DNA from: an uncultured Candidatus Saccharibacteria bacterium
Lineage (GTDB): Bacteria; Patescibacteriota; Minisyncoccia; JBAYJV01
Length of the DNA: 64,000 nt
NCBI GenBank assembly: GCA_964577395.1
Contig: CAZNYQ010000008.1
Span: forward strand, 57,319 to 121,318
Reading direction: 5' to 3'
A program made the translations under genes and the position numbers. Position 1 is the stretch's first letter. Every line of letters begins with the position of its first letter. Below the pieces are notes generated by a model that worked only from the letters and a program-made list of their open reading frames with translations, did no database searches and was not told where the DNA came from. Positions 59,131-64,000 of the stretch are shown piece after piece.

Positions 59131-60798
59131 TCAAGAAGAGCTTAACATTTCAATTAAAGTAGCAGAAGACCATAATTGAGCAGGACTCCCTGAAGAATGA
59201 AAATGATTAGCAGAAGAAAGTTCAGAGGAAAATCCCAAAATACCACAAGATAATAAATCTTTTAAGTTAGTTTTTTTAATTTGCAAAATTTTATTATAGT
59301 ATTTTTGTTTATTTAATCTAATCATAGATAGAGCTGCTAAATTATTAATCCATAACCAACTATCACCATTATGATAACTCTGAGGGTTTTCTCCCGTATG
59401 TTTGCTATAATATTGAGGGTTACTTTGAGAAACTGTACTGAATCCTCCCCAATTACACCAAAGATGTTTAATAGCTATATCAAAACAAATTTCCCACTCT
59501 TCTTTTTTTAAAAGATAGGGATATATGTAATAAGCTAAAAAAATATTAGGCCTAATGGTTTTATCTTCTTTTGTATCAGCTAAAAAATTATCTTTCCAGA
59601 AAATTGATTTTGTCATTTTTTTTAACTTATTTTCCTTATTTAAAAAAATATCTTTTTTAGTAATCCTATAAGCAGAATGATAAATTGCAAGCTGAAGACA
59701 ATAATTCTCTAGAGTATCTTGTCTTTTCAGGGTGTCCATCCAACTATCAGATTTTAAATAACTTTTTTCTGCTATGCTAACAATTTTTTCTATATCATCA
59801 TTTTTAAATTTTAATAAGTTCATTTCAAGAAAACGATAAATATACCATAGCAAGCCATCGGCACTTTTAATAACATTTTGAGGAAAGTTATTACTTTTAA
59901 TCTGTTTAAGTCTTGCTTTAGATAACTTAATAGTTTCATGAGGCATTATTCTATAAAGTTCTTTTAAGCTAATTGCCTCATCACGAAGCCAAAATTGAAA
60001 AAACCAAGGTAAACCAGCATATAAACCAAATAACTGTTTATTCTCTACAAAAAAATTTTTTAAACTCAACTGACTAATACAACGAGCATAATTTTCAATA
60101 CTTGAATCATTATTAATCTCATTATTAGAAAATAAAACAGTCTTCTTAGCACTTTTTATATTTTGGAATGCTTCTTTTTCACTAAGCCCTACCCCTAAAA
60201 CTAGTGATTTAGTCTTAATTTTTAAGGCTTGAAAAACATAAAGCTTGTTAGGTGAAGAATTTCTATTTTGATCATATGAATACTTTTTTTCAACCCAATT
60301 TGCTAATTTACTCCAGCCTAAAAGACCTTTTTTCGAAATAGCTACGAAAATATCTTCATGTTTAGGATAACTATATTTAATAAGTAAATAATTAGTTTTA
60401 GAATAAATATTATAAGTTCTATTCCAAGTCGGAAATTGATTAATTGGTCTTATATCTAAAAAAATATGTATATTAGATATACGAGATAGGCTGTATTTAA
60501 AGCAATTCAAATTATTTATACATATATTTTCTTCAAAATCATGTTTTTTAAGTGTAATTTGCTTGCCTGTCGCATATATGTCAACAAAATTAACGTTTTC
60601 ATTATTATAATTTCTTGTAATAGAATCCAGGATTTTAAAAATACGTCCATTTAAATTAATGAACCAACCTTGATAACGACTTTCCTCTTTTTGTTTTTTC
60701 CAAAAATAACCACCTACCTCATCCATTAACATAAAACTTATATGATTATTAGTTCTTTGTTTTAATGTATGTTCACCAATTTTATAATTAACATTCAT
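59131..60798 (-). CDS. (alpha/alpha)6-barrel glycoside hydrolase, glycogen-debranching (GDE_C / amylo-alpha-1,6-glucosidase)-like
   Basis: C-terminal GDSWLW and QLWSSATLIEM-type motifs typical of GDE_C/GH63-like barrels. Family assignment is moderate. Confidence 0.5.
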   Translation of the reverse strand: MNVNYKIGEHTLKQRTNNHISFMLMDEVGGYFWKKQKEESRYQGWFINLNGRIFKILDSITRNYNNENVNFVDIYATGKQITLKKHDFEENICINNLNCFKYSLSRISNIHIFLDIRPINQFPTWNRTYNIYSKTNYLLIKYSYPKHEDIFVAISKKGLLGWSKLANWVEKKYSYDQNRNSSPNKLYVFQALKIKTKSLVLGVGLSEKEAFQNIKSAKKTVLFSNNEINNDSSIENYARCISQLSLKNFFVENKQLFGLYAGLPWFFQFWLRDEAISLKELYRIMPHETIKLSKARLKQIKSNNFPQNVIKSADGLLWYIYRFLEMNLLKFKNDDIEKIVSIAEKSYLKSDSWMDTLKRQDTLENYCLQLAIYHSAYRITKKDIFLNKENKLKKMTKSIFWKDNFLADTKEDKTIRPNIFLAYYIYPYLLKKEEWEICFDIAIKHLWCNWGGFSTVSQSNPQYYSKHTGENPQSYHNGDSWLWINNLAALSMIRLNKQKYYNKILQIKKTNLKDLLSCGILGFSSELSSANHFHSSGSPAQLWSSATLIEMLSSS

Positions 60799-61743
60799 TT
60801 AATTATTATCCCCACTTTTATAAAAATTAGCTGCTTTTTCAGGACTAACAGTAACTATGATATCTCCTCCGCTTAATTCAAAACCACCCGAGGTATTAAG
60901 ACGAGGTAAAAGCTCAATATGCCAATGAAAGTCTTGATTATAAGGTCCGTACTGAATATAAAAACAATAGGGTGCATCAACTGTTTGTAATCTTTTAAGA
61001 ATCTTTTTTAAAATTTCAGCTAAGGCAAAATATTGCTTCTCCTTTAGTTTAGTTAAATTATTCATATGTTGCTTGGGGAAAATCCATACTTCGTAATTAA
61101 ACCTTGGTGCATAAGGACAAAAAGCTGTAAAATCTTTGTTTTCAAAAACTTGTCGAGGACCTTTCGATTCATCTTCAATAATTCTACAATAAGGACAATA
61201 TTTAAATTTATTGTAAGTTTCTAGTTCATCTTTTACAGAATGAGGTATTCTTTTTGTAGCAATAACTTGAGAATGGCTGTGAACAATCGAGGCACCAGCT
61301 TCTTTGCCTTTATTTTTAAAAACAGAAACATAATTAATATTAGGTAACTTTTCTAGCTCCTGAATTCTGTAATTATAAACTTTTAAAAGAGCAGCAATGT
61401 GATCATTAGATAAATCTGCTAATTGTCTTTTATCCGGTGTCTCCACTATAACTTCTTGAAGCCCATAAGCAGTTTCAGCAAAAAAGAATTGATTGTTACT
61501 GATATTAGAACTTTCTTTAGCACTTAGGGCAGGAAATTTATTAGGCATCCATCTAATCAACCATTTTTTGCGTTTTTCAATAATTCTCCCCTTTTCTGGT
61601 GGCGTCTGCGCTTCTCTACCAGAACAAAAAGGACAGTTTCGGGGATGAGGAGTATGTTTAATTTTTTTAAAATGCTGGGGTCGCTTATTTCTTTGTGGGC
61701 TAATATATGTCCAGCGATCTAAAATATAATCTTTACGAAGCAT
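60799..61743 (-). CDS. GalT-family (HIT-like) hexose-1-phosphate nucleotidyltransferase
   Basis: CPFCSG zinc motif and FKNKGKEAGASIVHSHSQ active-site H-x-H-x-Q, as in galactose-1-phosphate uridylyltransferase. Confidence 0.7.
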   Translation of the reverse strand: MLRKDYILDRWTYISPQRNKRPQHFKKIKHTPHPRNCPFCSGREAQTPPEKGRIIEKRKKWLIRWMPNKFPALSAKESSNISNNQFFFAETAYGLQEVIVETPDKRQLADLSNDHIAALLKVYNYRIQELEKLPNINYVSVFKNKGKEAGASIVHSHSQVIATKRIPHSVKDELETYNKFKYCPYCRIIEDESKGPRQVFENKDFTAFCPYAPRFNYEVWIFPKQHMNNLTKLKEKQYFALAEILKKILKRLQTVDAPYCFYIQYGPYNQDFHWHIELLPRLNTSGGFELSGGDIIVTVSPEKAANFYKSGDNN

Positions 61744-61756
61744 AAAATATAGATGA

Positions 61757-63520: not shown

Positions 63521-63534
63521 AATAAATTAAATAA

Positions 63535-64000
63535 TTAAGAAATAATTCTATTCTCTAAATCTCTTAAAACATTCATATAATTAATATATGACTCGTAAGG
63601 AGATTCATAGGGGTTAAAATATTTATGAACATCACCATCAGAAAACCATTTAGTACACATATAGTAAAAATGATCAGACGTCTGTAATTTTCTCCATGCA
63701 TCTAATAATTGTTTATCTTTTTTCTTAGCTATCTTATCTTCCAAATTATATAAATCAGCTAAGGCTGATTGCTGTAATTCATTACCCATCCAAGCAGAGA
63801 GATCCCTTTCTGTATCTGCCCACGTTAAGGGCTCTGTTATATGAAGACTTCCGATTGATTTATTCTGATTTAAAGCTTCGATCGGAGTAATAAATTGAAA
63901 ATCTTCTCTTTGGGCAATTTTTAAAATTAAATCTTCTAAAAACTCAAAAATACCAGTTTCTTGCCATTGATGTTCTCCGAAAGTTTCATAATCCATAAAA
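63535..64000 (-). CDS. GH57-family glycoside hydrolase, C-terminal part (gene continues beyond window end)
   Basis: DYETFGEH and SDHFYYM resemble the conserved GH57 motifs (DGETFGHH / SSDW region). The true start lies beyond coordinate 64000. Confidence 0.5.
   Translation of the reverse strand, partial: FMDYETFGEHQWQETGIFEFLEDLILKIAQREDFQFITPIEALNQNKSIGSLHITEPLTWADTERDLSAWMGNELQQSALADLYNLEDKIAKKKDKQLLDAWRKLQTSDHFYYMCTKWFSDGDVHKYFNPYESPYESYINYMNVLRDLENRIIS

Follow-up and report, generated by a model that had tools for sequence, protein, structure and literature searches.

A glycogen operon with the same content as the one analysed here was reported for the candidate phyla radiation (CPR) bacterium RAAC2 (WWE3; Kantor et al. 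2013, mBio; PMC3812714). For archaea, clusters of GT4, glycoside hydrolase family 57 (GH57), and GH133 genes have been reviewed, together with the occurrence of glycogen synthases of glycosyltransferase family 3 (GT3) in DPANN, Euryarchaeota, PVC, and Bacteroidetes (2024 Chem Rev; PMC11046441). The review mentions neither CPR nor a GalT-like gene, records no enzymatic characterization of archaeal GT3 enzymes as of 2024, and lists as open the role of GT4, glycogenin-free priming, and the use of amylase-type GH57 as a branching enzyme. One paper regards glycogen storage as a hallmark of DPANN (PMC7443923). Of the complete Woesearchaeales genomes, 55 % have GT3. In the present analysis, a 64-kb stretch of contig CAZNYQ010000008.1 (the window) was found to end in a genuine, intact glycogen gene cluster centred on a GT3 glycogen synthase. 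Because the same operon content was given for a CPR genome by Kantor et al. (2013), the cluster is not new; it is a further example of the known glycogen module that is widespread among tiny CPR bacteria and in DPANN archaea, here in another CPR lineage, and ordinary for that lineage.

Layout and enzymes of the operon

Four consecutive open reading frames (ORFs) on the minus strand close the window, with the same coordinates as in an earlier reading made from the letters alone (the sequence-only reading). The four-gene cluster it had described is real and intact, with an operon-like arrangement. From the window end inwards, they encode the last 154 residues of a GH57 enzyme of the amylase type (63535–64000), a GT3-family glycogen synthase of 587 amino acids (aa; 61757–63520), a class-I GalT-family (HIT) nucleotidyltransferase of 314 aa (60799–61743), and a stand-alone amylo-α-1,6-glucosidase of the GDE_C/GH133 type, 555 aa long (59131–60798). 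The family-assignment scores of all four are far above chance by Pfam. The GH57 gene is cut by the window end, and the identical locus is found on longer metagenome contigs (L001–L004, up to 97.9 kb), with the proteins also recorded on a 149.5-kb contig. On L001 the GH57 gene is complete (8799–9986, 395 aa) and is preceded by a co-directional, off-window gene for a GT4/GT5-like glycosyltransferase of 397 aa (7592–8785). The order is GT4/GT5-like, GH57, GT3, GalT-like, and GH133, and the window holds the downstream four-fifths of these five genes. They are separated by 13, 14, 13, and 0 nt, all on one strand, and such short gaps fit a single operon; mltG lies beyond the GDE_C gene, after 65 nt if the longest ORF is taken or 89 nt as the gene is called on the contig.

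The synthase belongs to GT3 and not, as in the bacterial GlgA type, to GT5 or to GT4, which is what had been read from its N-terminal WEVCNKYGGIYTV signature (residues 8–20). The GT3 model (Glycogen_syn, PF05693) covers residues 5–584, model positions 1–581 of 639, with 505.5 bits where the cut-off is 27. The competing models are weak (GT5 PF08323, 25.8 bits; GT4, 20 bits; NCBIfam GlgA, 39 bits where 328 are required), so the GlgA and GT5 models score far below what a GT5 or GT4 placement would need. All 12 matches in a PDB sequence search are eukaryotic glycogen synthases (E about 1e-115 to 1e-119, residues 2–582), and yeast Gsy2 and human GYS1 align across residues 2–582 with E=1e-118 to 1e-116. 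The catalytic E-X7-E pair of the yeast enzyme (E509 and E517) is found as E483 and E491 in EPWGYTPLE and is invariant in 20 homologues. The aromatic residues that sandwich the uridine are also conserved (Y454 and Y466), a feature that does not discriminate between nucleotides. The UDP-glucose dependence given in the sequence-only reading is an assumption carried over from the eukaryotic enzymes.

The regulatory features appear to have been kept in part. The residues that bind glucose-6-phosphate in yeast Gsy2 (H286, K290, H500, R583, and R587) align to H269, R273, H474, R555, and K559, and these five positions are invariant or nearly so among 20 CPR/DPANN GT3 homologues. Four of the six regulatory arginines have been lost; the phospho-sensing R580, R581, R589, and R592 of yeast are replaced by Y552, Y553, G561, and N564. 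The protein, which starts with the catalytic core and stops after residue 587, has no N- or C-terminal regulatory (phosphorylation) tails. Since the glucose-6-phosphate site is apparently kept and the phospho-arginines and tails are gone, the enzyme may retain activation by glucose-6-phosphate while lacking control by phosphorylation.

The GalT-like protein is a member of the class-I GalT family of the HIT superfamily, as previously labelled. GalP_UDP_transf matches at 59.9 bits, together with DUF4921, HIT, and DUF4931_N, and both family motifs are present, the active-site HXHXQφφ as HSHSQVI (residues 155–161) and the zinc-binding CxxC as CPFC (residues 37–40). Although the family is right, the resemblance is greater to ADP-glucose phosphorylase than to true GalTs. 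The best PDB match is the Arabidopsis ADP-glucose phosphorylase At5g18200 (1Z84; E=4.8e-51, 177 bits, residues 2–307), GalT structures match less well (P. aerophilum 6K5Z, E=8.5e-33; E. coli GalT, E=3e-17), and the protein falls under both NCBIfam GalT equivalog cut-offs (TIGR00209, 93.6 against 102.1; PRK11720, 113 against 448). A short archaeal homologue from P. aerophilum has been reported as a class-I GalT. On these similarities, the protein may be either a nucleoside diphosphate (NDP)-glucose phosphorylase or a hexose-1-phosphate nucleotidyltransferase of the Leloir type, the two being about equally probable. A role as a simple substitute for a pyrophosphorylase was also considered; it is weakened by two related loci (L020 and L024) that carry both a GalT-like gene and an NTP_transferase gene. 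Among the GalT-like homologues, three (L015 1651–2577, L017 11784–12650, and L024 5302–6231) have DYFA(S/P)G or DMFSPG in place of C.FC.G; the H.H.Q motif is kept in L015 and L024, whereas in L017 that stretch of the sequence is masked.

The GDE_C assignment of the 555-aa protein was borne out by a Pfam match and by a predicted fold as in stand-alone archaeal enzymes. PF06202 matches at 66.6 bits against a cut-off of 21, over model positions 177–367 only, which is the C-terminal half. A single-sequence PDB search with this protein returned no match; a family profile places the beginning of the barrel, AGLPWFFQFW.RDE, on residues 1030–1138 of the C. glabrata glycogen debranching enzyme (GDE), a weak match. 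The AlphaFold2 model, built on 40 homologues, is confident, with a predicted local distance difference test score of 90.2, and consists of an N-terminal β-sandwich and an (α/α)6 barrel. Foldseek ranks the stand-alone amylo-α-1,6-glucosidase from Thermococcus gammatolerans (7VMA) first among its matches.

The GH57 assignment is likewise secure: the complete protein matches PF03065 at 225 bits, and the part inside the window does so at 33.2 bits. The full 395-aa protein retains intact conserved regions and catalytic residues. E148 (FRNTEL) aligns with the T. litoralis nucleophile E123 (WLTERV) and, like D244 in FMDYETFGEH, is invariant; by its pattern, D244 is proposed as the acid/base. The window fragment includes FMDYETFGEH and the C-terminal conserved block, the HQP motif and E148 lying off-window. 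No match was returned by a single-sequence PDB search with the GH57 protein, and a profile found only the 4-α-glucanotransferase 1K1W (E=2e-6), again a weak match. The enzyme is short, 395 aa compared with more than 500 aa in the characterized branching enzymes of T. kodakarensis, T. thermophilus, P. horikoshii, and T. maritima. It belongs to the 'α-amylase-type' group of GH57. Enzymes of the amylase type have been suggested as the missing branching enzyme, which the 2024 review poses as an open question while citing a Sulfolobus GH57 knockout with a low-glycogen phenotype (PMC11046441).

The GT4/GT5-like protein has Glycos_transf_1, Glyco_transf_5, and GT4 matches. With its family profile, the best structure matches are M. 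smegmatis GlgM (6TVP, E=2.4e-50) and P. abyssi GlgA (E=1e-46, full length), the latter taking in the N-terminal GGL motif. Among full-length NCBIfam matches the best is glgA_Coryne, a GlgM-type model, whose 134 bits fall far short of the cut-off of 302.

A module that recurs across CPR and DPANN

In one scan of species-representative prokaryotic genomes, GT3 relatives were present in at least 598 species genomes. Given this breadth, and partner genes that form an archaeal, DPANN-type set, the description of the cluster as eukaryote-style in the sequence-only reading is misleading; glycogenin, a GH13 branching enzyme, and a bifunctional GDE are all missing from this set.

Gene order was compared in 80 GT3 loci by ORF calling and phmmer, 42 of them from CPR/DPANN and 38 from Planctomycetota, Bacteroidota, and others. 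In the CPR/DPANN loci the GT4/GT5-like gene is present in 26, GH57 in 28, the GalT-like gene in 14, and GDE_C in 17, with at least one partner in 37. Not one of the four partners occurs in any of the other 38 loci. Among the 80 loci, the partner module recurs in CPR and DPANN only. Within it, the GT4/GT5-like and GH57 genes adjoin in every locus that has both, the GalT-like gene is directly downstream of GT3 in 12 out of 14, and the present operon shares its entire five-gene order with L016, from Paceibacterota, and L028, from an archaeon. Some related DPANN loci additionally contain NTP_transferase, PGM, and GH15 genes.

A small protein of about 120–210 aa adjoins GH57/GT3 in 11 related loci, mostly of Woesearchaeota, and often lies between the two genes (for example L006 6546–7022, L021 2683–3499, L031 2274–3325, and L042 9422–9979, with seven other loci). 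It matches DUF5752 only in L006, weakly, at 21.7 bits and just under the cut-off. The small protein, NTP_transferase, and PGM are all absent from the window operon.

In a neighbour-joining tree, the GT3 of the window falls within a CPR subclade nested inside Woesearchaeota, and CPR and DPANN sequences are intermixed in all five family trees. This intermixing suggests transfer of the glycogen module between domains, that is, between DPANN and CPR.

Probable glycogen turnover and its alternatives

Gene content around the operon was taken from precomputed Pfam calls over the window and flanks of about 30 kb, about 95 kb in total. Neither a GT35 phosphorylase nor a glycogenin (GT8, Glyco_transf_8) was called there, and the absence of glgC and glgP that had been noted from the sequence holds over the same range. 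A PGI gene lies about 8 kb past the window end (L001 875–1837). An overlapping contig carries a GH15 glucoamylase gene (L087 1–542), about 6.7 kb ahead of the window start; GH15 probably belongs to glycogen breakdown, though it is about 70 kb from the operon.

It is likely that this operon serves cytoplasmic glycogen (α-glucan) turnover with five genes, a type common to CPR bacteria and DPANN archaea. The mechanism proposed for it, the best supported of the readings, is deduced from homology and gene context. An NDP-glucose donor would be formed from glucose-1-phosphate, and α-1,4 chains would be built from it by the GT4/GT5-like enzyme, GT3, or both. Because no glycogenin is present, the GT4/GT5-like enzyme is a candidate initiator. 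GT3 would probably be the regulated elongating enzyme, activated by glucose-6-phosphate and not controlled by phosphorylation. Chains would then be remodelled by GH57, for which branching is a candidate activity. In breakdown, α-1,6 stubs would be stripped by GH133 alongside the distant GH15 glucoamylase, and the GalT-like enzyme would connect the NDP-glucose and glucose-1-phosphate pools, either as a phosphorylase or as a Leloir-type transferase. No operon protein has a signal-peptide-like N-terminus when inspected by eye only, and GH57 starts directly at the conserved HQP segment, which suggests a cytoplasmic location.

Several observations weigh against this account of turnover. Neither NTP_transferase (of the GlgC/GalU type) nor PGM was called in the 95 kb, and with no pyrophosphorylase or phosphoglucomutase within that distance the supply of donor is locally unaccounted for. 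PDB sequence and profile searches found no significant similarity of GH57 to any solved GH57 branching enzyme. A promoter and terminator scan was uninformative, as chance alone would give 47 promoter-like sites and 43 were found, and the neighbour-joining trees are without support values. As no enzyme of the module has been characterized from CPR or DPANN, the assignments of donor, primer, branching activity, and GalT-like reaction are deductions throughout. In addition, in a co-culture of Ca. Nanohalobium, the secretome contained homologous hydrolases (a debranching enzyme, an α-amylase, and GH15), which supported growth on starch and glycogen (PMC7443923). This last result favours a different use of the hydrolases, in which GH57, GH133, and the distant GH15 would mainly scavenge external starch or glycogen and not act on an internal store. 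It is an unlikely one for this locus, where GH57, GH133, and the GalT-like protein have no hydrophobic, signal-like N-terminal segment (by eye only) and the hydrolase genes are tightly packed with those of two cytoplasmic synthases that depend on NDP-sugars.

The synthases themselves could be read in other ways. The match of the GT4/GT5-like profile to GlgM 6TVP, ahead of all other structures, and the glgA_Coryne match would accord with a maltose-1-phosphate synthase of the GlgM type that feeds a GlgE-like polymerase. The same glgA_Coryne score is far under its cut-off, however, P. abyssi GlgA matches nearly as well over the full length with the GGL motif included, and there is no GlgE-like or other GH13 gene in any locus examined; with a dedicated GT3 elongating enzyme encoded two genes downstream, just past GH57, a GlgE pathway is improbable here. 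There is also a slim chance that GT3 and the GalT-like protein together make up a reversible, NDP-catalysed equivalent of glycogen phosphorylase that replaces GT35, the pyrophosphorylase, or both. The reactions, which are as doubtful as the pairing, would be glycogen + NDP ↔ NDP-glucose and NDP-glucose + Pi ↔ NDP + glucose-1-phosphate. The closeness of the GalT-like protein to ADP-glucose phosphorylase, its position directly downstream of GT3 in most loci that have it, and the lack of GT35 and NTP_transferase in the 95 kb all agree with such a pair. The phosphorylase reaction is also reportedly readily reversible, with a Keq of about 5–40, as McCoy and co-workers are said to have found in 2006. 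Against it, the DPANN loci L020 and L024 hold both GalT-like and NTP_transferase genes, the short P. aerophilum homologue is a reported GalT, reversal of glycogen synthase in vivo to a significant extent is undocumented, and the gene calls cover about 95 kb of the genome. The most far-reaching version, in which an NDP-recycling phosphorylase/synthase pair of GT3 and the GalT-like enzyme is combined with an ancestral glucose-6-phosphate switch, a GT4/GT5-like primer in place of glycogenin, and a module moved between DPANN and CPR, is very unlikely to hold as a whole. If true, the NDP-recycling pair would move glucose-1-phosphate into and out of glycogen at no NTP cost.

With cytoplasmic glycogen turnover as the preferred account, the value of the cluster is in its bearing on questions that are open in the field: priming of GT3, the role of the GT4/GT5-like enzyme, branching by GH57, and the nucleotide sugar used. 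These are sharpened by three observations, none of them demonstrated: by the apparent retention of the glucose-6-phosphate site without phospho-regulation, by the fixed adjacency of GT3 and the gene resembling ADP-glucose phosphorylase, and by the intermixing of CPR and DPANN sequences.

The host genome and comparison with known systems

The host is a CPR (Patescibacteria) bacterium, in keeping with the small-genome host that had been supposed. The window has about 30 % G+C, contains the bacterial cell-wall and division genes MurD, MurG, FtsW, Ddl, MurB, and MltG, and its proteins have their nearest homologues in Paceibacterota/Parcubacteria and Woesearchaeota. No RNA family was found in the window by an Rfam scan at gathering thresholds.

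Gene order elsewhere around the operon differs from the usual in several places. In the ribosomal operon (window 25067–27256, equal to L086 16052–18241), SecY follows L18 after 13 nt, an arrangement repeated on an independent Logan contig, and S5, L30, and L15 are not at their usual place. L30 loss is typical of CPR; the relocation or loss of S5 and L15 is unusual. Just past the window end (L001 5204–7501), SecE-NusG-L11 leads straight into an FtsW/RodA gene, after which comes the glycogen operon, and the usual L1-L10-L7/L12 genes are not next to L11; some Parcubacteria lineages are reported to be without L1, and the arrangement is consistent with this. At window 8881–14321 the order is shuffled, with FtsA-FtsZ, RpoA-L17-L13-S9, a MurA-like gene of the EPSP_synthase family, MreB, and S12-S7-EF-G-EF-Tu, and with S13, S11, and S4 not upstream of rpoA. 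A lysine-rich ORF of 552 aa on the minus strand between murB and mltG (55960–57618) has no Pfam or NCBIfam match and is found on every contig with the locus. Between pgk and ddl, a 496-aa ATP-grasp protein is encoded on the plus strand (31668–33158), with weak ATP-grasp matches of about 30 bits. On the other flank (L087 1–5598), GH15 is followed by a restriction/defence-like set of EcoRI_methylase, GmrSD_N/HNH, and an SMC_N/AAA_15/AAA_21 ATPase.

The classical GlgC-GlgA-GlgB-GlgX-GlgP pathway has the same task as this operon, the making, branching, and degrading of α-1,4/α-1,6 glucan, but is built differently. GlgC and GlgP were not found in the 95 kb, and at every step the family differs: GT3 and the GT4/GT5-like enzyme stand in for the GT5 GlgA, GH57 for the GH13 GlgB, and GH133 for the GH13 GlgX. 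The term non-canonical, used in the sequence-only reading, is overstated; the module is standard for CPR/DPANN and has already been reported. Eukaryotic glycogen synthases (Gsy2 and GYS1) share with the window GT3 full-length homology, the catalytic glutamates, the uridine aromatics, and the residues for binding the phosphate group of glucose-6-phosphate, but the window enzyme has neither phosphorylation tails nor four of the six regulatory arginines, and its partners are of the archaeal type. The GalT-like protein has the HSHSQ motif, the CxxC zinc site, and the GGFE segment in common with At5g18200 (1Z84); its next-best relative (6K5Z) is a true GalT, and the CxxC pair is missing from the three homologues named above.

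Archaeal and DPANN clusters contain the same CAZy families (GT3, GT4, amylase-type GH57, and GH133), the window proteins are 45–55 % identical to their Woesearchaeota homologues, and the five genes are in the order seen in the archaeal locus L028. The differences are that some archaeal loci have the small protein, NTP_transferase, and PGM, and that the host here is a bacterium, as shown by MurD, MurG, FtsW, Ddl, and MltG. The RAAC2 operon comes from a different CPR lineage, and its description (PMC3812714) has no classification into GT3 and GT4/5 and does not call the 'amylase-like' gene GH133. Compared from that description, the two operons agree in their five genes, in matching family content, and in a small CPR genome.

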